DNA of 64,000 bases from assembly GCA_965263355.1 (NCBI GenBank), contig CBDHHL010000029.1:10442-74441 (forward strand), written 5' to 3'. The translations under genes were made by a program, and so were the position numbers. This stretch comes from Leptolyngbyaceae cyanobacterium. GTDB taxonomy: Bacteria; Cyanobacteriota; Cyanobacteriia; Phormidesmidales; Phormidesmidaceae. The notes beneath the pieces were generated by a model, which was given only the letters and a program-made list of their open reading frames with translations, made no database searches and was not told the DNA's origin. Below are positions 3,872 to 51,487 of the stretch, piece after piece (within the stretch, counting starts at the first letter, position 1; each line of letters opens with the position of its first letter).

Positions 3872-4273
3872 ATGGCTACTGTACTCATCAACCAACCAGC
3901 TATTTACAATGCACTGATTAGCGGACTGCAGGACACAGCCCGCGAACTTGATCAGGCGTATACGACTGCCATCGAATCCCCTCGCTATGGATGGCCAGGA
4001 GAAACACTCCGACGGTCAGGAGAACGCGCTGGGACAACTAGAAATATCGTTGACCTGGGGGCATTCCGCGACTCTCAAGAATATCGATTCATTAATCCAT
4101 TCTTAGCGGAATTTAGCTGGGGAGGAGGCAGCGTGGACTATGCCCCACAAGTATTTTTTGGCTATACAACCACTGCCGGGAACAGCTTCCCCGCCCGCAA
4201 CCCAGTAGCAGAAGCCCATAAAATTACAGACCCTACTGAGTTATTTGGCGATAGCGTCAGGAGGTATGCGTGA
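3872..4273 (+). CDS. HK97 gp10-like neck/tail-completion protein
   Basis: RNIVDLGAFRDS (VDTGxLRxS-like), YAPQV..G, FPARNP; first gene of the tail operon. Confidence 0.65.
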   Translation: MATVLINQPAIYNALISGLQDTARELDQAYTTAIESPRYGWPGETLRRSGERAGTTRNIVDLGAFRDSQEYRFINPFLAEFSWGGGSVDYAPQVFFGYTTTAGNSFPARNPVAEAHKITDPTELFGDSVRRYA

Positions 4274-4982: not shown

Positions 4983-5693
4983 ATGCCTGCTGCTGGACAA
5001 CCGTTCACTCCGCCACAAGCGAAAAATGTTATTCCTCGATGTGCACTTATCCCAACGGGAAGTACAGCCAGACCCGTAGCTGGCACCTTCACCACATCAG
5101 GCTCAACAGATGTAACGACCGAGGGAACCGCTGAGTCAGTTACAGCTACGTTGTCAGCCGCCATCAGTAGCGTTGTCCAAGTTGGGCAATGGCTTGAGTT
5201 TGTTGCCCCTGCTGGAACCTCTGTCTTAGCTCAAGTCCGTACTCTGTACAACGCAGCAGGGACTAGCCTTGAGCTAACAGCTAATGAGACTATTCCGACA
5301 GGTTCTACAGCTGTATTCCCGGTCGTAGGCAGAATCAGGCAGTCAGCTGATTTGGCTGAGACTGTCGCGACTACAGCGTTTAGCTCATTTGATCACAGCT
5401 CTTCTGACGTGAGTATCGGGGAGGGCTCAGGGACATTAACTGTCAATGGTGGTTACAACTACTATGACGCGTTTGTCGCGACTGCTAAATACGCCAAAGA
5501 CAACAACCAGAAGTTGTATGTTGAGCGAGAATTGCCATCGCCCGATGGCAGCGTGTTTACTACAGGCCCCATCGACTGGGCGATCGCAATCCTGACGGGG
5601 CTAACCTCCAACGCTCAGGATGGTTCTAACGTAGGGGCAGACACGACATTCACCATCTCTGGTGCTGTTAACCGCATCGAGCCTCAAACTTGA
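4983..5693 (+). CDS. Major tail tube protein
   Basis: 236 aa, Thr/Ser/Gly-rich; C-terminal TTFTISGAV; AGGAG RBS; upstream of chaperone and tape measure. Confidence 0.7.
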   Translation: MPAAGQPFTPPQAKNVIPRCALIPTGSTARPVAGTFTTSGSTDVTTEGTAESVTATLSAAISSVVQVGQWLEFVAPAGTSVLAQVRTLYNAAGTSLELTANETIPTGSTAVFPVVGRIRQSADLAETVATTAFSSFDHSSSDVSIGEGSGTLTVNGGYNYYDAFVATAKYAKDNNQKLYVERELPSPDGSVFTTGPIDWAIAILTGLTSNAQDGSNVGADTTFTISGAVNRIEPQT

Positions 5694-5938
5694 TGAAGAT
5701 TTTTAGTAACCGTGACGTGTTTGTGCTTGGTGAGGTTCGACCTGGCGGGATTTGGGCTAATGCTGTTTGGCTGAGGCTCAAATCCATGCCAGGGACTACT
5801 CAAGAGCTATGGAATCGCTTAGAGCAAACTATCCATGGAACGGTTGAGATTCCTCAAAAAACAGACCAGATCCACACTGACATTTTTTTGCCTTATGTTA
5901 CTGCCCTGGAAGATCGAGTCCAAGAAACGAATAATTGA
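5690..5938 (+). CDS. Hypothetical tail-operon protein
   Basis: Coupled to the tail tube stop codon. Confidence 0.5.
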   Translation: MMKIFSNRDVFVLGEVRPGGIWANAVWLRLKSMPGTTQELWNRLEQTIHGTVEIPQKTDQIHTDIFLPYVTALEDRVQETNN

Positions 5939-40339: not shown

Positions 40340-41800
40340 CTAACGGTAAAATTGAACCTTTACCCGTTGTTGTGGCGAAAGTTGTTTCCCATGAACAACA
40401 ACCTGCTTGATTAGTGAGTCAAGAATTATCCTTAGCTCACTGGGGGCTAGTTCTTCCCAGAATTCAGGATCCGCAGCAACCGTTTCGTAAATGTCAACGT
40501 CGTTTGGATCTACGTCTTGCCCAGTGGCTTGCTCTAGTTTTGATAGTTGCTGCTGCTTAGCCTGGATCACTCCACTCAATTCCGGATCCGCCATTGCCTG
40601 CAGCTGCTGTATCTGGTTTCTGAGTTTTATTATTTCTGGGTTCACTTCAGTGTTCGGCTCAGCAAATTCTTGAGCAATGTCGAGTGCCCTAGCGCAAACC
40701 TGTGAGATCACTTCCTTGAAGAATTGATCCGTTTTAATTGAATTCTTATAAGGGCACTGCCTTTTCACTCGGCTGTTAATGGTTGATTCTGCTCCTCCAC
40801 GGCAAACCAGATATGAATACGTTTTTCCCTGCCTATGGACAGTACTATTATTGTGTCTGCCGCCGCATAAGCCACACTTAATTTTGCCAGCTAATGGCTT
40901 TCTGCTCCTGGGGAATCCATTGTTCATTGGATTAGGAGCAGAGGCAATATTTTCGACAGTTACTTGCACAGCTCGCCATCGGTCAGGATCCATAATCGCT
41001 TCATGGTCTCCCTTCCTGACTAGCTCATTAGGCTTGCCAGGGAAATCAACCAGATAACCACGAATCACGGGAGACTGGACCCATCGCATAAATCCCTTAG
41101 TACTGACAGGGAAGTTTTTAGCAACTCCCCATCTCTCAGGATGCTTTTCGCTATAACGACCGCACATTGCCCGAATAGTGGCCCGGTATCCTCCAAGCTC
41201 AATTAACGTATCGATCATTTCGATAGCGATTTCCCGATAAGTCTTTCCGTCAGAACCAGGGAAAATATCATCATTAATTACTAGCCGCTGATCGCTGTCC
41301 TTTTTATAGCCAAATGGCGGATTAACTATCCTGTTTTGACTACGCCTGAACGCATGCCCTTTTACACTGTGCTCCCGTGCTTGGTCTCGTTGATGCTGCG
41401 CAAATGTGGCATCCAGGTTAGCTTGCAGGTTCCCGGCTGCACTGGTCAGGTCGATAGGCTTGATCCCTTTGTCCAGCTCGATTAATTCGCAGTCATTTTC
41501 TAAAAGTGCATCCCTGATTTTTACCCACACTCCAATATCTCGATGCCCCCTGGAGTGATACGGGACTACAAAGTATTTCTTATTAGGATCTTTCAACCTG
41601 GCTAATGCTTTTTGTAAATCCTTGCGTTCGAATATGCCGCCGGATTCAGCATCAGAATAAATATCAGTAGGAGCAATGCCGACCGCTTCAAGACGCTCTA
41701 AATAACGCTCGGGACTATGGCCCTCTTGCTCCTGCCGTTGCGTCGAAACACGATAATACCCAATGGCCTGAGATGGGTCGAAACTACTGTTTGCGGTCAA
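40340..41800 (-). CDS. Large serine recombinase (integrase), XisF-like
   Basis: Catalytic YYRVST, D.ESG...R, SR, PFGY, HEAI, Zn ribbon CGLC...YLVC, coiled coil, LIKQVVV. Confidence 0.92.
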   Translation of the reverse strand: MTANSSFDPSQAIGYYRVSTQRQEQEGHSPERYLERLEAVGIAPTDIYSDAESGGIFERKDLQKALARLKDPNKKYFVVPYHSRGHRDIGVWVKIRDALLENDCELIELDKGIKPIDLTSAAGNLQANLDATFAQHQRDQAREHSVKGHAFRRSQNRIVNPPFGYKKDSDQRLVINDDIFPGSDGKTYREIAIEMIDTLIELGGYRATIRAMCGRYSEKHPERWGVAKNFPVSTKGFMRWVQSPVIRGYLVDFPGKPNELVRKGDHEAIMDPDRWRAVQVTVENIASAPNPMNNGFPRSRKPLAGKIKCGLCGGRHNNSTVHRQGKTYSYLVCRGGAESTINSRVKRQCPYKNSIKTDQFFKEVISQVCARALDIAQEFAEPNTEVNPEIIKLRNQIQQLQAMADPELSGVIQAKQQQLSKLEQATGQDVDPNDVDIYETVAADPEFWEELAPSELRIILDSLIKQVVVHGKQLSPQQRVKVQFYR

Positions 41801-41972: not shown

Positions 41973-42458
41973 TTATGGCTGGGCCGATTGCTCTATCCAG
42001 CTTGGGACGTAATCGGTTCTATCGCAGTTCATTCCGTATTCCTGAATCAAAGGCAGTAGAATCCTGTCGGCCACCCTTGATAGCTCCTCGCTCAGCAGAT
42101 CTTCAACCGGAATGTTTAGCTGTTGAGCTTTTCTGAGAGTAGCTGAGTCCACTGGGATCGTAATATTCGCTTTCAAAATTAGCCTCCAACCTCATAGTTG
42201 GGCTGCATCTTGCAGGACTTTCCAACTTGATTCTTCTACAACAAAAGTCTCGGTGCCGGGGGCACTACATAAAGCGTATCCTTTACGCTTCAACCCTTCT
42301 TCAGTATCCTCAAAAGACAAAGGATCTTCAGACCAAGGGAAGACTTCTGCAAAGTCTTCTCCCTTGTAACCCCAATAGCATCCGAGGTCGTCTTTTACGA
42401 TTCGGTCGAAAGTGTAATGATTGATTTGAGCAGACATAATTTTTAACTCCGTTCTCAC
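41973..42458 (-). other. Two small ORFs (41973-42176 RHH/CcdA-like; 42192-42458 acidic hypothetical)
   Basis: Downstream of the leftward promoter at 42472-42500; GGAG(G) RBSs. Confidence 0.45.
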
Positions 42459-42471
42459 TTAACTTGCCCTG

Positions 42472-42545
42472 ATTGTATACGTTACATTTTTGAGTGTCAA
42501 CACTTTTGTTGAGGACTTGACAAGTCATCTTTAAGCGCTTATCTT
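42472..42545. promoter_or_regulatory. Divergent sigma70 promoters
   Basis: - strand TTGACA(42500-42495)-17-TACAAT; + strand TTGACA(42517)-17-TATCTT. Confidence 0.65.
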
Positions 42546-42558
42546 TTGATAGCAATCA

Positions 42559-42861
42559 ATGATTTTATTGAGGCGCATGAGCGAAGAGATTACACCTCAA
42601 CAGCTGTTAGATGCAGTTGAGAACCCATACAAGCTATTAAGTAAGTGGGTTCTAATGCGTGGTGGCTGGACTGCTTTGTATAAGGTTTTTGGCTATGTTT
42701 CAGCACAAAGCTTTAATGAGGCTTTTAGTCGTAGGGCCACTAAAAACCGATGGACTGGGAAGGGGCTGAGAACTCATTTGTCCATACTGGTTCATCTAGA
42801 CAATAATAGTCCAGAATTAGTCCAAAAAAATAGCACTCTCAATGAAAATGTTGAGGAATAA
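42559..42861 (+). CDS. Small putative DNA-binding protein
   Basis: Follows the rightward promoter; HTH-like segment. Confidence 0.45.
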   Translation: MILLRRMSEEITPQQLLDAVENPYKLLSKWVLMRGGWTALYKVFGYVSAQSFNEAFSRRATKNRWTGKGLRTHLSILVHLDNNSPELVQKNSTLNENVEE

Positions 42862-42934
42862 GGGGTTTATTGGGCTGATTAGTTGCGGTTGCAGCAGCAA
42901 GTCAAAGATATGATTTTTCGGAAGTAAAAAAAGT

Positions 42935-42956
42935 ACTTTATCATTCCGTAATTCCT
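42935..42956. repeat. Left direct repeat of the CRISPR cassette (partner 45553-45574)
   Basis: ACTTTATCATTCCGTAATTCCT vs ACTTTATCACTCCGTAATTCCT, 21/22 identical. Confidence 0.85.
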
Positions 42957-44635
42957 CTTTTCTTGTGGTTCTTTGCGGCGTTAACATCTGCATTTTGCTT
43001 CTGTTCAAATAGGCTACAGCTCTCATTTACGCAAATAAACGTGTCTTGGGCTGGCCTGATGCCTTTCCCTCCGCAACAATGACAGCGTTGTGATGAGTAT
43101 CTAGCCTCCGTCTCTATGTATAATTTCCCGGCTTCCTCTAATTTAGATTTTGTTTTAGTTCTAAGGTCGCCCATACAGGCTATTTTCAATGATCTGTTCA
43201 ATCCTGCCTTAGCTGTTCTGCCGTTTTGCTCGTAATAACTTCCATCTTCAGCTAACTTAGGCGTTGTCTGCCTCCCCATGTTAGTTAACGCCGTAGCCTC
43301 CCAGGCGATGACATCATAAGTTCTGGCTAACCTGGTTGACAGCTTATGATTGAAAGCATTTGAACTATTAACAGCTCGCTCATGCAGCCTGGATATTTTA
43401 TTCCTAAGTTTTTGCTCGTTATTAGTGGCTTCACGCTTCCCACGCTTCCATATTTGTCCTAGCCGCTTATCATTTTTTTCAGTCATAATGTCAAGCTTGG
43501 ATTGCAGCTTTTCAATATGATTGTGTATTCGTTGTCTGCTTTCGTTAGGATTAAATAAATGACCTTCGTCAGTCGCTACAATTGCCTTAACGCCAGGGTC
43601 AATGCCCGCCATATGCCCGGTTCGTTTAGCGCATTTTGAGTCTTCTATTAGCAAGTATGGCAGCTCATTTTCTATTGACTTTTTCTTGGCTAATGCCGCT
43701 TGATAGTCTTCACTGTTAGCTAACGCCTTGGCTTGCTCCTTTTTCCCTTTAATGCCATCAATAACTTTTTTCTTGATAGCGATTAAAACTCTTTTTTGCC
43801 GTTTAAGCTCTAATCTATTTTCTTCTTCCGCTTCACTTTGAGTAGTTAAGCATAGATAGAAGCCACTCGGTTTTAATATCAGTTTGTAAGTCTTTATTAC
43901 ATAGCCTTCGAGTCTTTTTGAATAGCTACGATCGCACGGTTCTAAAACTAAGCCTTGACCGTCGAATTGCCCTTTTTTGAACGGGATGGCTTTTTGATTA
44001 TTGTTCAGCGTGCTAATTTTACACTGCTTGCCGTCCTTGTACTTTGGCTGCTTTCTAGCGGGCAGTTTCCCGTCTAAATAAGCCCTCCAGGCAACCTCAA
44101 AGTCAGCTAGTAGCCCCCCAACAAAATCGCTATTGCACGTTAATTCATCAAGACCCTGAGAACTTCGTGACGCATTTAGCAACGCCATATTGTCTAGTCC
44201 CCATGATTTCCCCTTTAGCTCACGTATTAATGGGACGCCTTCCTTGAAATAAGGGACTTCGATATATTTATGGGGTTCTGGCTTTATCCGCCTATATGGC
44301 TTATCCCCAGTCACTAACTCATAGCCAAGTTTTGTTTTGCCATCGCCATAGTGAATCAAAGGGGCTTTATCTGACTTCTTAAAATACGGACCTCCTTTAG
44401 CAATCTGACAAGCTGCGCCATTCCAACCGCCACTCTTTGAAAAGCGTAACGGCGTTCTAATGCAGCCTGATAAGTCGACGCCTTTCTTTTCTACCCAGGC
44501 ATACCACTCAAGGCAATGATTATGTAAGGCTACGGCCCGTACATAATTCCACAACCATTCAAGCTCTCTGCAAATTTTCTCGTATGTAATTAGTGTTTCA
44601 GGAGTCGGCTGGACTTTTACCTTGATCGTCTTCAT
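42941..44635 (-). CDS. TnpB/Cas12-family RNA-guided nuclease, CRISPR-associated (C2c8/type V-U-like), 564 aa
   Basis: N-terminal KVKVQPT...WLWN; RuvC-I GIDPG, RuvC-II IAWE, YSSQRCHCCG...C Zn finger, RuvC-III NADVNAAKN; larger than typical TnpB; no tnpA; adjacent array. Subtype is tentative. Confidence 0.88.
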   Translation of the reverse strand: MKTIKVKVQPTPETLITYEKICRELEWLWNYVRAVALHNHCLEWYAWVEKKGVDLSGCIRTPLRFSKSGGWNGAACQIAKGGPYFKKSDKAPLIHYGDGKTKLGYELVTGDKPYRRIKPEPHKYIEVPYFKEGVPLIRELKGKSWGLDNMALLNASRSSQGLDELTCNSDFVGGLLADFEVAWRAYLDGKLPARKQPKYKDGKQCKISTLNNNQKAIPFKKGQFDGQGLVLEPCDRSYSKRLEGYVIKTYKLILKPSGFYLCLTTQSEAEEENRLELKRQKRVLIAIKKKVIDGIKGKKEQAKALANSEDYQAALAKKKSIENELPYLLIEDSKCAKRTGHMAGIDPGVKAIVATDEGHLFNPNESRQRIHNHIEKLQSKLDIMTEKNDKRLGQIWKRGKREATNNEQKLRNKISRLHERAVNSSNAFNHKLSTRLARTYDVIAWEATALTNMGRQTTPKLAEDGSYYEQNGRTAKAGLNRSLKIACMGDLRTKTKSKLEEAGKLYIETEARYSSQRCHCCGGKGIRPAQDTFICVNESCSLFEQKQNADVNAAKNHKKRGITE

Positions 44636-44798
44636 TATTTTGTACGTCGTTTTGTGGCAGCTCTGGCAGCATATCAATAAAGCGTTCCAATAGGTCTGCT
44701 ATCGATATATCCCAAAGTCTACAATACTGCTCTAGCTTTTGTTTGCGACTTTGCTTGATGCGCGCGTAAATCCTGCCTTCTCTATTCTCTTTTCCCAT
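44598..44798 (-). CDS. Ribbon-helix-helix regulator upstream of the nuclease
   Basis: RIYARIKQSRKQKLEQYC...SIADLLERFIDML; overlaps the nuclease start. Confidence 0.75.
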   Translation of the reverse strand: MGKENREGRIYARIKQSRKQKLEQYCRLWDISIADLLERFIDMLPELPQNDVQNNEDDQGKSPADS

Positions 44799-44814
44799 TT
44801 ATATTAAAAAATAC

Positions 44815-44843
44815 TTGGCGTACAAAATATAACACGCTAATAT
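44815..44843 (+). promoter_or_regulatory. Candidate promoter for ncRNA/array
   Basis: TTGGCG-17-TAATAT in an AT-rich gap, just before the structured region. Confidence 0.55.
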
Positions 44844-44849
44844 AAGGAC

Positions 44850-45040
44850 ATCGCAGTTTGGGCGACAAGGCAGCGGAAACGTTGTTGGATGGCTTCAGCG
44901 CTAAGGTTCTCTAGGGGGCTATGGGTATCTTCTGTCGGGAAACCGATAAACACCAGCCGAAAGGCAAGATAGGAGCAAAAGGAGTCCGTAAGGCCCTTAT
45001 AGATTCGCCGGATCTATGGCGAACAGTCTCAACTTTTTTT
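44850..45040 (+). ncRNA. Putative tracrRNA/omegaRNA-like structured RNA
   Basis: Four GNRA-capped hairpins (44870-85, 44934-47, 44956-65, 44986-93), enclosing helix TATCTT/AAGATA, terminal TTCGCC/GGCGAA stem and T7 run at 45034-40. Confidence 0.7.
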
Positions 45041-45080
45041 GGCAAAGCTAAGCGAGGCCAAAAGAAGAACCTTGAAAAAC

Positions 45081-45099
45081 AGGGATTAAAGCTTTGGCA
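45081..45099 (+). other. 19-nt perfect anti-repeat in the leader
   Basis: AGGGATTAAAGCTTTGGCA is the reverse complement of repeat nt 3-21. Confidence 0.85.
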
Positions 45100-45171
45100 A
45101 AATTGCCATTTTATGAGCTTTGCCAGAATCGCTCATAAAAGCCTTGCGGCTAAAGGGATGCAGCTGTTTAA

Positions 45172-45554
45172 GCTGCCAAATCTTTTATCCCTACCAAGGG
45201 ACTGAAACCATGATGGGGCGATTCTGGATATTGATTCCCTACCGCTGCCAAAGCTTTAATCCCTACTAAGGGACTGAAACGCGGCAAAACCATTTGCTTT
45301 AGCTACGTCATCGCTGAGGCTGCCAAAGCTTTAATCCCTACTAAGGGACTGAAACAGCAGGTCAAAATCTGGAGAATTAGCAATCGCGATGGCTGCCAAG
45401 GCTTTGATCCCTACCAAGGGACTGAAACTAGCAATTGATAGCGATGAGTAAGGCATCACGGGCTGCCAAAGCTTTAATCCCTACCAAGGGGCTGAAACGA
45501 GTCAATCTCTTGGATCACAGCCAAGCTTTTCTTGCGCTGCCAAGGGACTGAAAC
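45172..45554 (+). CRISPR. CRISPR array: five 37-bp repeats plus one 19-bp internally deleted repeat; five spacers
   Basis: Consensus GCTGCCAAAGCTTTAATCCCTAC(C/T)AAGGGACTGAAAC at 45172, 45244, 45319, 45392, 45462; GCTGCCAAGGGACTGAAAC at 45536. Unique spacers of 35, 38, 36, 33, 37 nt. Orientation from the 3' GAAAC and the degenerate last repeat. Confidence 0.97.
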
Positions 45555-45558
45555 TTTA

Positions 45559-46431
45559 TCACTCCGTAATTCCTTTTAGCCCGAGTATAGTTACGACTGA
45601 CCCCACGATCAGCGTAGACCACTCGAATATGTTCTTAATAGTTTCGTGGTCCAGGTTCAGTGCGAACGCCGCGATTGCAGCCAATGATACGCCAAGTACA
45701 AGCATGCCAAGCTTGATTTTTTTCTCAGCCTTGCGACGGGCGAGTAGCTGGGATTCTTGCTGACGGTTTAACGCTCGCTCTTGCTCCAGCGTGCTACTAA
45801 GGTCTAATAGGACACTGCTTTGTTCATTGAGCTTTTGGCCAAACTCCTCACGCTCTTTGGAGTATTGGACTTGCATCCGGCCCATGGCTTCAGTGAGCTT
45901 TTCTAGCTGATGCTTGGCCTGTGTGGCTTCCTGTTCGTAGATCCTCCGCTCCATTTGGATAGCTTGGAATTGCTGCAGCGTTGGGGGGTCCGTATCATCT
46001 CCCGGCTCTTTTTCTGCAGGCCACTCAAGGATGCAATAGTATCGTGAGTTAATTAAATCATTTTGGAATTTAGGGAAAATAGTGATACTTCCTGCAAGGC
46101 CAGGACGGAGCTGCATGAATCCAGTCACAGGACGATGGCCAACCCATACTCGTTGTTTCGACGGCTTCCATTCGCCGTCGACTAAGTGGCCATCGTGAAC
46201 AAAATAATCCCAGCCCCTGGGACTTGCCTGGTTCTCTTCTGCTAACAAAGTGCATTGACGAGAGCTGATCCAATTTTGGCAGCGGGCACCGACACCAATC
46301 TGAATGTGGTTTTCTGCAGGTTCAGCTCTGCCAATCGTAATTGGCCCACGCCTGAGTCTTTCTAGTGAGATTTCGTGTTGCTGATCACTCCCGCCTATTT
46401 CGGTGATCAGCAGATACTCTTCGGCTTTCAT
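45559..46431 (-). CDS. FHA-like domain, coiled coil and two C-terminal TM helices
   Basis: ITIGR...WISSRQCTL...VHDG...S...WV (degenerate FHA motifs). Confidence 0.65.
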   Translation of the reverse strand: MKAEEYLLITEIGGSDQQHEISLERLRRGPITIGRAEPAENHIQIGVGARCQNWISSRQCTLLAEENQASPRGWDYFVHDGHLVDGEWKPSKQRVWVGHRPVTGFMQLRPGLAGSITIFPKFQNDLINSRYYCILEWPAEKEPGDDTDPPTLQQFQAIQMERRIYEQEATQAKHQLEKLTEAMGRMQVQYSKEREEFGQKLNEQSSVLLDLSSTLEQERALNRQQESQLLARRKAEKKIKLGMLVLGVSLAAIAAFALNLDHETIKNIFEWSTLIVGSVVTILGLKGITE

Positions 46432-46486
46432 ATTGGGCTATAAATACTCTCTTATAGGCTAACCTATAAAAGAATCTTTCTCCTCA

Positions 46487-47020
46487 GTGCTATCTATGGC
46501 CACTATCCCAGACAGTTCAGGGTTACCGACAAGCGGGACAGGCACTGGACGGAGACTTACTCGCGCTGATCTCCAGGCAATGATCGACAAATCGGTCACA
46601 AGCAGTATAGGCGAGGCGTTTCGACTCTCTGGGCAAGCTGACGAGCGGAATGCTGCTAGACTCCGAGACTTGGAAGCCAGGATGGAGACTTTAATAAAGA
46701 AAGTCTCTGACAGCAGCTCGACAATAGCAGAGATAAAGGCTGGCTACGACGAATACAGGGAATGGGGCAGCAAAGTGGCTGAGGCTGTAGCGGCCACTGG
46801 AGGAGATGCTAGAACGCTGCACAGGACTATGGAACGGGTTGATGGCCTTGTTGAGATTGCTCAGTTGTTATTGAGAGTGCTAGAGCCAACAAGCAGGGCG
46901 ATCAATTGGATGATCGACCGACTGCACCGGCTGGACAAAAGAACATACAGTCACAAAGACGGGGCGGATATCACTAACCTAGTGAATGGCCCCCGACGAA
47001 GATCGAGTGATCGCGGGTAG
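46487..47020 (+). CDS. Coiled-coil hypothetical protein
   Basis: Heptad-rich ORF divergent from the FHA gene. Confidence 0.5.
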   Translation: MLSMATIPDSSGLPTSGTGTGRRLTRADLQAMIDKSVTSSIGEAFRLSGQADERNAARLRDLEARMETLIKKVSDSSSTIAEIKAGYDEYREWGSKVAEAVAATGGDARTLHRTMERVDGLVEIAQLLLRVLEPTSRAINWMIDRLHRLDKRTYSHKDGADITNLVNGPRRRSSDRG

Positions 47021-48069
47021 TGGCGCAGGGCGACCGAATAGGTAACCCTGCGCCATGTCACAGCCGATTGCCTTAAGCATGTCGGCCTGTTGCTGGGTTT
47101 CCACGCCTTCAGCGATAACTTTGATGCTGAGTTTTTGCGATAGCGCCACAATTGCGTCAACCATTACTCTGGATTCGCGAGCAGGCAGGCCACTAATAAT
47201 AGATCTGTCGAGCTTTACCAGGTCAACTTGACCCTTCAGCAATCTATCGTAGCTGCAGTATCCGGTGCCGAAATCGTCCAGGGCGATCTTTACGCCTTTC
47301 CCCCTAGCTGACTGAATCCGGCTCTGAATCTCCTCAGAAACAGCCTCAGTCTCCAATATCTCCATATGCCCTCTAGCAGGCAGCTTTTGATCGTGCCAAT
47401 CTGCTCTAGCTAGAGTGAATGGGCTGATATTAAAGCTGATCCACTGGCCAATCTTGCTTGAATCTGCCTGGGTTCGCTCGATTACCCAGTAGCACAGCAA
47501 GTGTTCACTGTTTGCCTTTCTCAGTAAAGGCAAGAAATCCCTGGAAAGATTAATGCATTGTCTTTTGCCCATCTTGACAACGCCTCATAACCAACGGTCT
47601 CATCGGATCTTAGGTCAACTATCGGCTGATAATGCAGGGCAAATCCGTTGTGGTTAATTGCGTATTTTATTTCTGAAAGCCTTTGTGTTTCAACCTCTGT
47701 CAGCTCTTTGTCGCCAAGTTTGCTGACTTGGGAAAAGAAATAAAGAAATTCTCCAGACTCAGAATGGAATCCTTCACAGTGCAACGTGCAAGAGATCCAT
47801 TCTGCTGTTTGTCCATGCTTATAACGTTTTTTCAGTGTGAAAGATTTAAGTTCTCCATTGATTACGCTGCGGAATGGGTTGACCTGAGGCGTTAGATCGT
47901 CAGGATGACTGATTTCCTGAAACGTTAGGCGCAGCAACGTTTCTCGTTGATAACCCAGTATTTCACACAGAGTCTCATTTACATCCCAGAACTTTCCGTC
48001 TGGCCCAACAATAGCAGCCCCTATCAGGCTGTTCCGTTTAAGTAGCTCTGGGATTCTATGCATCATCAA
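46979..48069 (-). pseudogene. PAS-EAL c-di-GMP phosphodiesterase, split by a 1-nt frameshift
   Basis: PAS (VNETLCEILGY...ISHPDD), YQPIVDL..GYEAL.RW, then in another frame DFLP...FNISP, MEILE, LDDFGTGY, VKLDRS, IAEGVET, QGYLFGRP. One extra G at 47539-41 restores ..FPGDFLP. Confidence 0.88.
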
Positions 48070-48091
48070 AAATACCTAATCCTGCTTCCGC
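48062..48091. repeat. Direct repeat flanking the methyltransferase (partner 49405-49434)
   Basis: ATCATCAAAAATA(C/T)CTAATCCTGCTTCCGC, 29/30 identical. Confidence 0.9.
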
Positions 48092-48225: not shown

Positions 48226-49404
48226 TTAGCTTGCAAGTAAATCCAATAAGCTTAGCTGTTGCTTTTTGGGGGCTTCCTCAGTCGTTGCGGTCTGTTGTTT
48301 TAGCCAGTCTAATCTAGCCTGCTGCGATACAAAGTTTTGTTCTTTGCCGACTTTGCTACGGGCTACATCTGCCCAATGAGGATCAATATCAATCCCGATA
48401 AAATGTCGTCCATGCTTTTTGGCCGCTACTAGAGTATTGCCGGAACCACAAAAGCAATCTAGAACTACTGAATTAGGTTTAGAACTAGCGTTTATTATGT
48501 GCGCCATCATGGCCAATGGCTTCTCGCATGGGTGCTTACCTGGGTAGCTTTGCACTGTCGGGAAGTCCCATATATCCGTGTAGGGTACGTCTGACGATAC
48601 AATAAACGGTCTACGTAGTTCTTCGTATTGCTGACGTAGTTCTTCGTATTGCTGACGTAGTTCTTCGTATTGCTGACGTAGTTCTTCGTATTGCTGACGT
48701 AGTTCTTCGTATTGCTGACGTAGTGAGTTAGGCCCAAACAATTGGCGTAACCATTGATAATTATGTTTTGTTGGCAATGCCCATTGAATAGAGGTGAACC
48801 AGTGGCCAGCCATACCCGTTACTGTTCGGCTACCTGTTTTTTTTTGAAAAGCTTCAGCAACTTGTCTTATTGAAAATCCAGCCTCCATTCTCTCTCCATC
48901 CAAATACGCCCGCAACGGTTCAAAAACAAACCCGCGCAACTCATCACACTTTGCCTGATAACCTGCTTCGCCTTTAGCTGCGTTATCTGCGCCGTAATGT
49001 TCACAAAAGATAATTGATTCCGATGCAGGGAAATAGCCTCTAAGAATTTCTTTGCATGATCCTTTATGAAATCCTTGTTCCTTTCGCCATCGAATATTGT
49101 TCAGCACATTAAACCGATCGCTCAACAACACCTCAACTCGTGCTGACATTTTTGTGCTCGCGAAACAATACAGGCTGCCATTAGGTTTTAATATGCGTTG
49201 CCATTGCGCGGCTAGCTGGTCAATCCATCTCAAGAATTCTGCTGAATTATCCCAGGCGCGATCCCACCATTCGAATTTGCCTTTAGAACCGCCCCCTTTT
49301 ACCTTAAAAAAAGGCGGGTCAGTTGCTATTAGATCAATGCTGCTATCAGGGATGCCGTTCATCACTTCCAAGCAATCGCCTTGAATAACTTGATTTAATT
49401 CCAT
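48226..49404 (-). CDS. Orphan N4-C/N6-A DNA methyltransferase (beta order) with HTH/coiled-coil insert
   Basis: GDCLE, TDPPF, HPCEKP, VLDCFCGSG; no restriction partner nearby. Confidence 0.92.
   Translation of the reverse strand: MELNQVIQGDCLEVMNGIPDSSIDLIATDPPFFKVKGGGSKGKFEWWDRAWDNSAEFLRWIDQLAAQWQRILKPNGSLYCFASTKMSARVEVLLSDRFNVLNNIRWRKEQGFHKGSCKEILRGYFPASESIIFCEHYGADNAAKGEAGYQAKCDELRGFVFEPLRAYLDGERMEAGFSIRQVAEAFQKKTGSRTVTGMAGHWFTSIQWALPTKHNYQWLRQLFGPNSLRQQYEELRQQYEELRQQYEELRQQYEELRQQYEELRRPFIVSSDVPYTDIWDFPTVQSYPGKHPCEKPLAMMAHIINASSKPNSVVLDCFCGSGNTLVAAKKHGRHFIGIDIDPHWADVARSKVGKEQNFVSQQARLDWLKQQTATTEEAPKKQQLSLLDLLAS
48613..48724. repeat. Perfect 21-bp tandem repeat x5.3 (QQYEELR heptads)
   Basis: ACGTAGTTCTTCGTATTGCTG at 48613, 48634, 48655, 48676, 48697, plus a partial copy. 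Confidence 0.97.
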
Positions 49405-49408
49405 ATCA

Positions 49409-51487
49409 TCAAAAATATCTAATCCTGCTTCCGCCAACTGGGCCGCGTGGAAGTGCCAATATCCGCTTATCCCATTGTGTTCGCATCGCAGTCCAGTTAG
49501 GAGGGGTGATTGATCGATTGCTTCCAATGCTGCCCACCCCAGTCCCCCCAGATCGGCTTAGATCGCCCTGAAGAATATTGCCTGAAAACTGCGGGTCTTC
49601 CTGATAGCTGTTGTCATCGAGCAGAGCTTTACCCAGGCTGTTCCAGTTGGTTAGCCCATTGTATTGGACGTTGTCGATTAGCACGCTCGGAGTACTGTCT
49701 GTACTGTCCCACAAAATATTGTTGTCGGCGGTTATGAAGTCGCCTGTGTTGACCGCTTCGTAGAGGTTCCCGTCGCCTTGCAGGATGCTGTCCCTGATGT
49801 CTGGCAGGCTAAATGCAAATGAGCCGGTGTGATATTTCACTACAGGCTCATTGTCCAGCTGCGTCGTGGTGACATTCCTAACTGTAGTAGTCCCGTTTCT
49901 GCCCCAAAACAAAGCCGTATCCACACTAGTCAGTGAGCCTACAACGGCGTTGCGGACTGTTGTGTTTGCAGTAGCTGAGTTTAAATTATTCCTGACGATG
50001 TATCCGTCAGTGCCCCCATTGATAGCCATGAGCCCATCAACCTCTATCGACTCGTGCCCAGAGAGTACAACCTGAACGTAACCATCAAAATAGCAATCTT
50101 GGATGTCCAGCTCTTCGCAGTCGTCAGCTTGAACTCCTCGCGTCCCGTTCAGTGCATAGCAATCTTTGACCAATAGTTTTTTGAGATCATCAGTCCCATT
50201 ACTGGCATGGCAAAAGAAACTAGCGCCCGTACTGAGTGTATTGGGCGAATCTACAACGCAGCCTAGATAGGCATTCAACGCGGGCTCGTCATTGCTGCTT
50301 TTGAATATGACAGCAGGAGTACTAGACGGGATGCGAGAGTCGTTAACAATATGATCTTTGTAAAAGGCGCAATTCTCGAATATGCCCGATCCGATTTGCG
50401 CAAAATGGCTGTTCCCAAACTTAAAAAGACAATTTCTTACAATTGTCCCTCTAGCCGTAAAATACAGAGCGCCATTATCTCCAGTAGCAGTATCAATCTG
50501 GAAGCCATCAACGATGGACCCGTCGCCAGCGTTGTGAAACGCATACTGCCTAACCCCACACTCATAGACTTTCCCATTAGTGCGGACATCAGAGCTGTCA
50601 GAAGCGTGGATATACAGTGGAATTGTTGCTGCTGAGTTGGCATTTACATTGTCATGACCGGTGTATGTATAACTCCCCGCAGTCGTTTGACATGTCGCCA
50701 CATCAGCCACGTACGTCAGTAGTTCGTCGTCCTCGATAACAATTGGGAACGATTCAATTGCAGTGATCGTGTGACTGATGTTGATCGTCCATGCATTACT
50801 GCTGGCATCGCTGAAGTTGGCGTTAGTCAGCACGTCAGCCGTTGTGACTCGCGGCAGTGGCCTGTCAGTTGATTCAGCCCGAATTGTTAGCCGTTTCCCG
50901 CCAAGATCACATTCCTCCCTAAAGGTGCTGTTGGTGCCATCAGCCGTATTGCGGACAATAATGGTGTCTCCGTCAGACGATGCCGCAATCGCCGCTGAAA
51001 TAGTGGCATAAGGAGCATAGTAATTCCCTGCTATCCCATCAGTAAAACTATCGTTGCCAATAGCAGCGCTGACAAACACTGCAGTAGAGTCAATATTCAA
51101 CGTCGCTTCTACTGCTGCTGTGGGGGCTGTAATCGTAAAGCTGCCAGTGAAGTCAGTGTCATCATCGCCTGCAATTTTTGTCCCCCCAATAATGCTGGCC
51201 GCTTCCCAGTTGACCAGCACGTCGGTCGCGGAGTTATTGAGTAGCGTGGCCTTATGAGTGGGGCTGATTAGTGCAGACCATTCTTGCTTGTTTGCGTTGT
51301 CGACAACCTTGGTCAATCCGTCGCCTTCAGTTAATTTTACGACTTGAGAACCAGCTGTGAGGGTTAATTCGAACCCAGCATTTAGTAATGAATCTTCTGT
51401 TTTGCGGACAAGGAAAACTTTTTTGCTGCCATATCGCCAACTGACGATAGACCCGTTGAACAATTTATCGGCATCAGTGCAGACCAT
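49409..51487 (-). CDS. Parallel beta-helix (pectate-lyase-like) virion protein/depolymerase candidate
   Basis: VFVS...GND...PYATISAAIAA..GDTIIVR cap, then repeated IVRNCLF/FENCAF/VKDCYA strands. Confidence 0.65.
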   Translation of the reverse strand: MVCTDADKLFNGSIVSWRYGSKKVFLVRKTEDSLLNAGFELTLTAGSQVVKLTEGDGLTKVVDNANKQEWSALISPTHKATLLNNSATDVLVNWEAASIIGGTKIAGDDDTDFTGSFTITAPTAAVEATLNIDSTAVFVSAAIGNDSFTDGIAGNYYAPYATISAAIAASSDGDTIIVRNTADGTNSTFREECDLGGKRLTIRAESTDRPLPRVTTADVLTNANFSDASSNAWTINISHTITAIESFPIVIEDDELLTYVADVATCQTTAGSYTYTGHDNVNANSAATIPLYIHASDSSDVRTNGKVYECGVRQYAFHNAGDGSIVDGFQIDTATGDNGALYFTARGTIVRNCLFKFGNSHFAQIGSGIFENCAFYKDHIVNDSRIPSSTPAVIFKSSNDEPALNAYLGCVVDSPNTLSTGASFFCHASNGTDDLKKLLVKDCYALNGTRGVQADDCEELDIQDCYFDGYVQVVLSGHESIEVDGLMAINGGTDGYIVRNNLNSATANTTVRNAVVGSLTSVDTALFWGRNGTTTVRNVTTTQLDNEPVVKYHTGSFAFSLPDIRDSILQGDGNLYEAVNTGDFITADNNILWDSTDSTPSVLIDNVQYNGLTNWNSLGKALLDDNSYQEDPQFSGNILQGDLSRSGGTGVGSIGSNRSITPPNWTAMRTQWDKRILALPRGPVGGSRIRYF

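Follow-up and report, generated by a model that had tools for sequence, protein, structure and literature searches.

The window analysed here, a stretch of 64,000 nucleotides, represents 64 of about 74 kb of a phage whose genes within it include those for a tape measure protein, an Erf annealing protein, RusA, DnaB, a serine integrase and a scaffold protein. It also carries a compact CRISPR cassette. On the minus strand, the gene for a 564-amino-acid nuclease (positions 42941–44635, counted from its ATG) is overlapped at its start, by 38 nucleotides, by a reading frame for a 66-amino-acid RHH/CopG-like protein (44598–44798, minus strand). The plus strand carries a likely promoter, a tracrRNA, a leader and a repeat array. 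A Pfam scan (E 0.001) found no cas1, cas2, cas4, cas6 or tnpA families among 91 open reading frames of at least 75 amino acids, which were kept from 131 after 40, mostly nested in longer frames, had been dropped. This confirms an earlier note on this DNA, which had seen none of these genes in the window.

That note had suggested that the nuclease may be an uncharacterised C2c8/V-U-like effector. Judged from its sequence, the protein is instead a relative of Cas12p (‘Cas12 hacker’, type V-P), a phage-borne nuclease of 500–700 amino acids that likewise lacks adaptation genes and whose structures have been solved (Wang et al., bioRxiv 10.1101/2025.01.20.633832; 9JFS and 9JG3). A sequence search matches it to these structures with an E value of 5.8e-112, and its fold matches Cas12p at 5.8e-45 in Foldseek (TM 0.71), the next family following at 1.2e-11. 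As a stand-in for Cas12p we used a homologue, L003, which has five motifs of the PDB chain and the preprint’s residue at 28 of 28 numbered positions tested; the window nuclease is 46.5% identical to it over 529 aligned residues. In a quick tree of 46 rows with SH-aLRT support only, the two proteins lie within one 27-row clade (97), where the window nuclease belongs to a subclade that is sister to Cas12p proper (46% identity). C2c8 proteins form the nearest sister group, which is separate (98), and TnpB proteins also stand apart (99). The preprint’s divergent ‘hacker-2’ could fall in the subclade of the window nuclease.

These data weigh heavily against a rival reading in which the protein is a C2c8 (V-U2) effector, or a TnpB of the common IS605/IS607 type, situated next to an unrelated array. 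The nuclease does pass the broad guided_TnpB model (115 versus 100 bits), has the C2c8 model NF038192 as its best NCBIfam match and is accompanied by an RHH partner. However, its C2c8 score of 172.4 bits, from a match restricted to the RuvC half, falls far short of the cut-off of 350, as do its scores for IS200_TnpB (50.6 of 425 bits) and IS607_TnpB (42.7 of 350), and Cas12p itself is likewise under the C2c8 cut-off (194 of 350). The C2c8 system of the cyanophage vB_AphaS-CL131 (PMC6293099) resembles the window cassette as a compact TnpB-derived effector beside an array without cas1 or cas2, yet its protein, which is within the separate C2c8 clade, aligns to the window nuclease only over residues 343–556, in the RuvC half, at 32% identity. 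A literature search for c2c8 in a cyanophage with CRISPR found no match. TnpB proteins of IS200/IS605 and IS607 elements share the RuvC domain and zinc finger, and their RNA scaffold has a 3′ end that abuts flanking DNA as a possible guide, whereas the window has a separate tracrRNA and array, no tnpA, an RNA that is upstream and divergent rather than over the gene end, and a 22-bp duplication. IS605 elements are not known to make a target duplication. Moreover, a family tracrRNA and array adjoin nearly all full-length relatives that have enough flanking sequence. The scores and separate clades refute membership of TnpB or C2c8, leaving such a protein beside an unrelated array very improbable; the earlier description of a phage-borne, array-linked type V system distinct from IS605/IS607 TnpB is borne out.

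The RuvC acidic residues and zinc finger reported earlier are all present. The triad D346/E446/D550 (D378/E478/D582 in Cas12p) and the zinc-finger cysteines C518/C521/C535/C540 show no variation across aligned homologues (n = 22). Residues identical in the window nuclease are, in Cas12p numbering, W44/Y45/W47, L107, I111, L115, C127, I129, D197, N261, Q262 and the RuvC triad. Among these, the PAM residues D197, N261 and Q262 correspond to D148, N213 and Q214, and K332 maps ambiguously to K278 or K289. The thioredoxin-binding region (approximately residues 45–119) contains C76, the equivalent of C127.

Other parts of the thioredoxin-binding surface are altered. Roughly 51 residues of the reference REC hairpin are missing, as is the Cas12p C-terminal tail; 8 of the 14 residues of the TrxA pocket are identical (including C76), L51, W102, F105, I110, V113 and I172 are changed or missing, and five of seven basic TB.b residues are changed or missing. 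These losses, together with a nuclease tail replaced by flank sequence and a tracrRNA that is 55 nucleotides longer, might indicate a crippled or thioredoxin-independent derivative that has lost TrxA binding or cleavage, where the enlarged tracrRNA compensates or the locus decays. We consider such a derivative improbable, because the short form is common to an eight-row subclade in which C76 is invariant, 13 of 13 full-length close alleles retain the catalytic and zinc residues (apart from one H-to-N change beside the finger), and the array shows spacer turnover. A model of the nuclease–TrxA complex also argues against it, scoring 0.87 versus 0.00 for the best of three controls, although a similar complex has been solved and the score may therefore reflect memory. 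Of 157 solved pairs, 116 reach the mark used for such models, as do 2 of 215 mismatched ones. Agreement between runs covers at least 94% of contacts with a partner pLDDT of at least 91, and C76 faces C33/P35 of TrxA as in the solved structure, which again may be memory. By analogy with Cas12p, the nuclease would depend on thioredoxin.

The earlier note had marked a structured region on the plus strand, and its fold is indeed exceptional: positions 44845–45210 give a z-score of −4.07, equalled by none of 100 shuffles. From its homology and conserved stems, this region is a Cas12p tracrRNA (44851–45035). Its alignment with 15 homologues reveals compensatory changes at 15 of the 23 pairs predicted. 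A 5′ GUUU (44856–44859) is available for the pseudoknot with the AAAC of the repeat that the preprint describes, and a 7-bp anti-repeat, CAGTCTC, is located at 45024–45030. An insert of about 55 nucleotides with GAAA-capped hairpins (about 44911–44966) distinguishes this RNA from that of Cas12p. Across the family, the own anti-repeat pairs over at least 6 bp in 11 of 14 loci and exceeds the foreign-repeat mean in 12 of 14. Cofolding of 44851–45035 with the repeat missed the anti-repeat duplex (ddG −3.2), which was recovered with a longer RNA and by duplex folding. An Rfam search of 42000–46500 at E 5 gave no match, and a 94-amino-acid reading frame over the tracrRNA (44921–45205), with no Pfam match, we regard as spurious. 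The leader (45036–45171, plus strand) contains a second anti-repeat, a perfect 19-nucleotide reverse complement of repeat positions 3–21 at 45081–45099; this is the longest such match of 17 modules compared, the rest measuring 6–15 nucleotides. Neither the tracrRNA nature of the region with its 7-bp anti-repeat nor this second anti-repeat had been described in the earlier note.

A candidate promoter for the tracrRNA and array lies at 44815–44843 on the plus strand, with a −35-like TTGGCG (44815–44820), a 17-nucleotide spacer and a −10-like TAATAT (44838–44843). A consensus scan of this strand called no promoter, but the distance of the candidate from the tracrRNA start matches that of TTGACA-17-T(A/T)ATAT in relatives, so the promoter proposed earlier is likely by positional homology. 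A 12-mer common to the regions upstream of the integrase and the tracrRNA is not a motif (five matches at two mismatches versus 4.7 expected). The upstream RHH gene of the earlier note exists as a reading frame. That it encodes an RHH protein is no more than a lead: it has Atlas feature matches of 0.92–0.93 to CopG/RHH clusters but no match in Pfam or NCBIfam. The encoded protein is likely an autorepressor, and would probably repress the divergent promoters. A 90%-identical RHH-like copy is tied to a sister-allele contig by a proxy link; kinship with a reading frame upstream of the nuclease at locus L046 is unsupported (E 0.16).

The array (45172–45535, plus strand) comprises five 37-nucleotide repeats ending in GAAAC, with spacers of 35, 38, 36, 33 and 37 nucleotides. 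The leader and five spacers reported earlier are thus confirmed, and a truncated sixth repeat that had gone unreported follows them at 45536–45554 on the plus strand. This terminal repeat has an internal 18-nucleotide deletion, and the remaining 19 nucleotides include the last 11, which hold both tracrRNA-pairing segments. Spacer turnover is visible as a joint between 45165 and 45244, found in three of three runs from one study. Because the sequenced relatives thereby lack the first repeat–spacer unit, the leader is placed at the 45172 end.

None of the five spacers has a target within the window, matches in phages and plasmids are at chance level, and 401 genomes of the cyanobacterial phylum yielded nothing convincing. 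We also searched IMG/VR with exact seeds from spacers 2–5. A 20-nucleotide seed of spacer 2 gave no matches, and 17-nucleotide seeds of spacers 3–5 gave 20, whose extension did not exceed chance (0–7 of 16–20 further bases); the exact repeat was also not found there. Use against host genes, which had been suggested earlier, is unsupported by these searches. Since the window’s spacers are without target, the target class and PAM are taken from relatives. Four distinct spacers of relatives match other Cas12p loci over 33–36 nucleotides at 91–100% identity, adjacent to GTG, GTG, ATA and TTG, and thus T occupies position −2 in all four. In Cas12p, D197 reads this T, and the PAM order is GTA>GTG>GTT>GTC (bioRxiv 10.1101/2025.01.20.633832); the window nuclease may share a GTN PAM. 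The matches of relatives’ spacers to sibling Cas12p phages agree with the earlier suggestion of inter-phage competition, and by this analogy the targets are likely rival phages or plasmids.

The cassette thus resembles Cas12p in its 37-nucleotide repeat ending in AAAC, its homologous tracrRNA with a pseudoknot, its RuvC triad, zinc finger, TB-region cysteine and D/N/Q PAM residues. Unlike Cas12p, whose tracrRNA and array are downstream, it has these elements upstream and divergent, and it adds the RHH-like gene, the 19-nucleotide extra anti-repeat and a flanking duplication. The head-to-head layout, called unusual earlier, is indeed uncommon but not unique: five loci (L024–L028) have upstream divergent modules, and three more (L002, L006 and L017) have one besides a downstream module.

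Two copies of a 22-bp sequence flank the cassette on the plus strand, at 42935–42956 and 45553–45574. They had not been named in the earlier note, although they border the interval it described. The copies match at 21 of 22 positions (23 of 25 through 42959). Read on the minus strand, the left copy encodes the last nuclease residues, GITE, and the stop codon; the right copy is the native 3′ end of a gene for 290 amino acids (45559–46431, minus strand) whose product has an FHA-like N terminus, a coiled coil and two hydrophobic C-terminal helices. Sequence comparisons place this gene outside the cassette, as the donor of the duplicated end. The GITE-stop end occurs in 15 of 15 flank proteins among the matches listed, which represent 15 of the 19–24 members of the protein clusters, and a 74%-identical homologue ends in GMTE. 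By comparison, GITE is the terminus of 6 of the 14 close alleles of the nuclease, and the other 8 have a longer, different tail. The duplicated gene end has thus replaced the nuclease’s C terminus. Searches of IMG/VR and of 3 + 401 genomes did not turn up the 290-amino-acid gene.

The site also appears to vary among relatives. With contigs paired by equal length as a proxy, no nuclease is listed for 8 of 10 contigs with genes from both flanks, and at most two of these could hide one. Three contig-only runs of one study list no joint that bypasses the cassette, although a short bridging contig could escape there. The cassette looks to have entered recently where the 290-amino-acid gene ends, and its presence there to be polymorphic. 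From position 45555, the right copy directly follows the terminal repeat, as a sixth guide would, and this would-be guide matches the left copy at 19 of 20 positions from its first base. The sole mismatch of the duplication, at guide position 8 (42944), is synonymous. The trinucleotide immediately 5′ of the guide match is TAC; GTA, the top Cas12p PAM in the preprint, is at 42933–42935 on the plus strand, one base off register with the terminal guide.

Taken as a whole, the locus is probably a complete, adaptation-less Cas12p system on a temperate cyanophage, recently inserted. The plus-strand promoter would yield a tracrRNA and a pre-crRNA, and the tracrRNA would pair with the repeat 3′ end through a 7-bp duplex and a GUUU:AAAC pseudoknot. 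The nuclease would use its TB/REC pocket to bind host thioredoxin, and would cut double-stranded DNA beside a 5′ GTN PAM in rival phages or plasmids, with new spacers presumably supplied in trans by host Cas1–Cas2. Insertion at the end of the 290-amino-acid gene would have left the 22-bp duplication. The most economical origin would be a single recombination event that joined a spacer to the site it matches, followed by decay of the last repeat. We give this spacer–protospacer route nearly an even chance. Spacer–target recombination that moves CRISPR loci has been reported (Varble 2019; Watson 2018), for host loci in transducing particles, and it too yields a cassette with a short direct repeat of the target on each side.

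The same system could alternatively carry a generic scar, in which phage recombination duplicated the target, as for restriction-modification genes, and the duplicated stretch stopped at the last repeat through microhomology or coincidence, without ever having been a spacer. Indeed, a second duplication of about 30 nucleotides flanks a methyltransferase gene of the same phage, and short duplications in this phage therefore need no CRISPR cause. Restriction-modification genes, including in Microcystis, are documented to insert with long target duplications (PMC2853133, where the lower limit was 30 bp). A degenerate terminal repeat, as is often found at array ends, and an off-register PAM also fit. 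However, such a scar leaves unexplained why the duplication starts exactly at the repeat 3′ end (two bases are shared; about 3 of the 73 positions in each repeat unit) and why GTA is beside the other copy. It is a reasonable contender that we hold at somewhat under even. The reports on either route are not known to concern a phage-fixed Cas12 cassette.

Active homing would make more of the same features. Here the truncated last repeat and the flank would form a guide that cuts cassette-free siblings, repair would copy the cassette in, and the seed mismatch would protect the filled allele. A guide match that starts immediately behind the repeat, the retained tracrRNA-pairing segments, the single mismatch at position 8 and a site that seems polymorphic by proxy contig pairing all favour this idea, as does the 22–25 bp of the duplication, which is about the PAM-to-cut distance of compact Cas12 and TnpB nucleases. 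Nevertheless, the in-register PAM is TAC rather than GTN, which lacks the T at −2 that the conserved D197 reads and that all natural matches in relatives have. Furthermore, no indel at the repeat–flank junction is listed in three runs, and of 39 loci the window is the only one in which a guide at the flank edge matches the far end. (A frameshift elsewhere in the window contig could be an assembly slip.) The delocalized homing crRNAs of V-K and I-F CASTs (PMC11656645) similarly have a partial repeat followed by sequence matching their own insertion neighbourhood, whereas the window has no transposase, an intact RuvC domain, a match that is the flank itself and a PAM off register. Literature on homing and target duplication, as judged short of full texts, describes no Cas12 cassette with a guide-edge duplication. 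Ongoing homing is therefore unlikely.

The window nuclease is a shorter natural variant of Cas12p, with 564 amino acids, no REC hairpin and a larger tracrRNA, which offers a test of which parts of the thioredoxin pocket matter and could help in the design of compact editors. The scar at the insertion site speaks to the question of how phages gain and spread CRISPR cassettes without an integrase. It may record a natural spacer-directed capture and, at lower odds, ongoing homing. If homing were true, which we doubt, a Cas12 would have retained or won back homing in the manner of TnpB, with no transposase involved, leaving a guide-length duplication behind. In the weaker form, to which we lend distinctly more credence while stopping just short of even, the locus would be a natural fossil of a single spacer-directed capture into a phage.

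The 564-aa nuclease of the cassette at 42935..45574, encoded on the minus strand from 44635 to 42941, is a relative of Cas12p, the type V-P 'Cas12 hacker'. Its sequence matches the Cas12p structures PDB 9JFS/9JG3 with an E value of 5.8e-112 (next chain, 5.5e-9), and its predicted model (pLDDT 85.9) matches the same entries by fold (E 5.8e-45, TM 0.71). The protein of a fetched relative locus, L003, was taken as the Cas12p reference because it carries five PDB-chain motifs and the preprint's residue at 28 of 28 numbered positions tested; the nuclease shares 246 identities with it over 529 aligned residues. In a quick tree of 46 proteins, scored by SH-aLRT support only, both fall in one 27-row clade (97), in which the nuclease's eight-row subclade (99) adjoins a 13-row group containing L003 (98). 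C2c8 with the cyanophage CL131 protein (98) and TnpB (99) form separate groups. The tree called for by the earlier note sets the nuclease outside both, and TnpB membership was rejected on the separate TnpB clade. That note's uncharacterized C2c8/V-U-like effector also gives way to a Cas12p assignment, as the nuclease scores 172 against the C2c8 model, where the cut-off is 350 and the reference Cas12p reaches 194.

The preprint (bioRxiv 10.1101/2025.01.20.633832) describes Cas12p as a phage-encoded nuclease that works with a tracrRNA and a 37-nt repeat, prefers GTN and requires host TrxA; the divergent 'hacker-2' reported there may fall within the nuclease's subclade. Compact type V systems on cyanophages are already published, namely the V-U2 system of CL131 (PMC6293099) and Cas12p. 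V-U groups targeting viruses have also been reported, with no correspondence made to this clade (Altae-Tran 2023; PMC10691335). Among protein-cluster members, the close nuclease alleles P0002, P0076, P0079 and P0081-P0086 are mosaics of two types, and their thioredoxin-binding region carries short in-frame duplications, pointing to frequent recombination.

All parts described earlier (the RuvC/zinc-finger protein, structured RNA, leader and five spacers) were recovered. RuvC residues D346, E446 and D550 and the four zinc-finger cysteines are invariant in an alignment with 22 homologs. The upstream gene previously called RHH is present as a 66-aa minus-strand ORF that overlaps the nuclease start by 38 nt. 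Pfam and NCBIfam gave no match for it, but CopG/RHH clusters are among its nearest Atlas clusters (0.92-0.93), which makes its RHH identity a good lead rather than an established assignment. The plus strand carries the structured region, leader, five 37-nt repeats, five spacers and a sixth repeat shortened to 19 nt, and 44845-45210 folds with a z score of -4.07. As noted before, no cas1, cas2, cas4, cas6 or tnpA family matched among 91 of the window's 131 ORFs (40, mostly nested in longer ORFs, were left out). Tape measure, scaffold, Erf, SSB, RusA, DnaB and serine integrase genes identify the window as phage DNA. Its host is probably cyanobacterial, because cyanobacteria and cyanophages are the sources of the named full-length homologs, the best integrase family is XisF and a right-flank gene has a Leptolyngbya homolog. 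The large serine recombinase (40340-41800) lies 1.1 kb from the cassette and scores 254 of 375 bits for XisF, its best NCBIfam family.

The Cas12p PAM residues D197, N261 and Q262 are conserved as D148, N213 and Q214, and the K332 equivalent maps ambiguously. In the thioredoxin pocket, 8 of 14 residues are identical, including C127 (C76 here). The six others (L51, W102, F105, I110, V113 and I172) differ because the nuclease lacks about 51 REC residues of the reference Cas12p, and two of seven TB.b positions are still basic. A complex model of residues 1-200 with Escherichia coli TrxA scored 0.87 (best of three controls, 0.00) and so clears a mark that 116 of 157 solved pairs attain, as do 2 of 215 mismatched ones. 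Runs share at least 94% of contacts with partner pLDDT of at least 91, and C76 faces TrxA C33/P35. Since a similar complex is already solved, this model indicates likeness rather than binding.

By sequence comparison, the structured region is the Cas12p tracrRNA. It shares the opening motif and closing hairpin of relatives' tracrRNAs, and across 16 aligned copies compensatory changes are seen at 15 of the 23 predicted pairs. GUUU at 44856-44859 is compatible with the published pseudoknot to repeat AAAC, and the anti-repeat, which pairs with the repeat, is CAGTCTC (45024-45030). A locus's own anti-repeat pairs over at least 6 bp in 11 of 14 loci, and better than with the mean foreign repeat in 12 of 14. 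A single insert makes this tracrRNA about 55 nt longer than most. A promoter-like hexamer pair, not called by a consensus promoter scan, has the spacing of the relatives' TTGACA-17-T(A/T)ATAT, and the leader contains a 19-nt perfect anti-repeat, the longest of 17 modules compared. In the canonical loci L003, L005, L009, L010, L020, L046 and L047 (~5860-5895), the TTGACA of the tracr promoter is found at, or inside, the final cas12p codons, which by analogy may echo TnpB's overlapping RNA.

Tracr and array are downstream and co-oriented in most full-length fetched loci. The head-to-head layout, earlier called unusual, is indeed the minority form but not unique, as L024-L028 have divergent modules upstream, and so do L002/L006/L017 beside a downstream module. 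In the Cr-LKS4-like loci L024-L028 and L007, multiple tracr-plus-array modules stand in tandem; their repeats end in GGGAAC, and their tracr has GTTC where the pseudoknot forms, which looks like a compensatory change. The first repeat-spacer unit is absent from relatives in all three sequenced runs of one study, which fixes array direction and demonstrates spacer turnover. With no cas1 or cas2 in the window, we infer that spacers are acquired in trans.

A 22-bp direct repeat at 42935 and 45553 (one mismatch; 23/25 when extended) flanks the cassette, and both copies encode GITE-stop on the minus strand. This end is native to the 290-aa right-flank gene (45559-46431, minus), as all 15 listed cluster members share it and a homolog with 74% identity terminates in GMTE; it is derived in the nuclease, where it ends 6 of 14 close alleles, with a longer unrelated tail in the other 8. 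Contigs with that tail appear as loose ends at 43059. When contigs were paired by equal length between protein lists, 10 carry genes of both flanks, with a listed nuclease in 2 and none listed in 8 (at most 2 hidden behind multi-contig entries). Among matches listed (15 of 20-24 members), a right-flank gene is seen in none of the eight sister-allele contigs. This proxy pairing suggests polymorphic insertion; no read joint skipping the cassette was found in three runs of one study. In all three runs, some contigs diverge at 42907 into other, gene-start-like sequence, and different cargo seems to be accepted at this site, which separates the 100-aa gene from the 290-aa gene.

Several neighbouring phage genes have features of their own. 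The 290-aa product has an FHA-like N-terminus, a coiled coil and hydrophobic C-terminal helices; Pfam FHA is found in two homologs, and one homolog is from a Leptolyngbya MAG. A PAS-EAL (c-di-GMP phosphodiesterase-like) gene at 46979-48069, 362 aa and intact in most listed cluster members, is split by a frameshift near 47539 that is either a real lesion or an assembly slip. A ~30-nt direct repeat (48062-48091 and 49405-49434, one mismatch), each copy directly preceding a start codon, flanks a DNA methyltransferase gene, which has the appearance of another cassette whose insertion duplicated its target. The methyltransferase contains an internal 21-nt tandem repeat (48592-48745; EELRQQY units) with a weak leucine-zipper score.

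The right copy follows directly on the last repeat, so that a sixth guide produced by read-through would match the left copy at 19 of 20 positions, a flank-edge match found only in the window among 486 guides in 39 loci. The truncated repeat retains both tracr-pairing segments. The bases directly before the left copy are TAC, with GTA, the best Cas12p PAM, one base further out. In the literature listings searched, which left aside most subscription papers including the Cas12p journal version, no report of a guide-edge duplication at a Cas12 cassette was found. One-off capture through spacer-target recombination, to which we give close to an even chance, would explain the exact repeat-edge boundary. 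A surviving recombinant would need an off-register PAM, because one in register would turn the left copy into a target of the cassette itself. Erf is encoded by the phage, and precedents are reported (Varble 2019, Watson 2018).

Generic insertion with target duplication is an alternative judged only slightly less probable, given the ~30-nt repeat around the methyltransferase gene of the same phage and the documentation of such insertion for RM genes (PMC2853133). Ongoing homing by the repeat-flank guide is unlikely: either TAC would have to support activity or the assembly would have to be off by one base at the junction, where the sequenced runs list no indel, although the PAS-EAL gene, whole in relatives, is frameshifted elsewhere on the contig. 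Homing guides with a partial repeat have been described for CASTs (PMC11656645), which, unlike this cassette, have transposases.

From the observed parts and their homology, we consider it likely that the promoter would drive tracr:crRNA for a TrxA-bound Cas12p, which would cleave the DNA of competing phages or plasmids next to GTN. New spacers would come from host Cas1-Cas2, and the RHH-like protein would repress its own expression. Searches of the window and other sequence sets found no target for the five spacers. The end of the newest spacer (45209-45243) resembles the central part of the repeat of this array, either by chance or because the spacer is directed at the array of another phage. 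An L020 spacer perfectly matches L006/L017 5445-5477 (GTG), in the cas12p gene of a sibling phage, and an L002 spacer (5398-5433) matches its own cas12p gene (4128-4163; 35/36, TTG). When 381 spacers and tails of relatives were compared with the fetched loci, matches of 33-36 nt to other Cas12p loci were found for four distinct spacers, with GTG, GTG, ATA and TTG as 5′ bases; two of these matches lie inside cas12p. These sequence matches support a role for the Cas12p family in inter-phage conflict, and a T at position -2.
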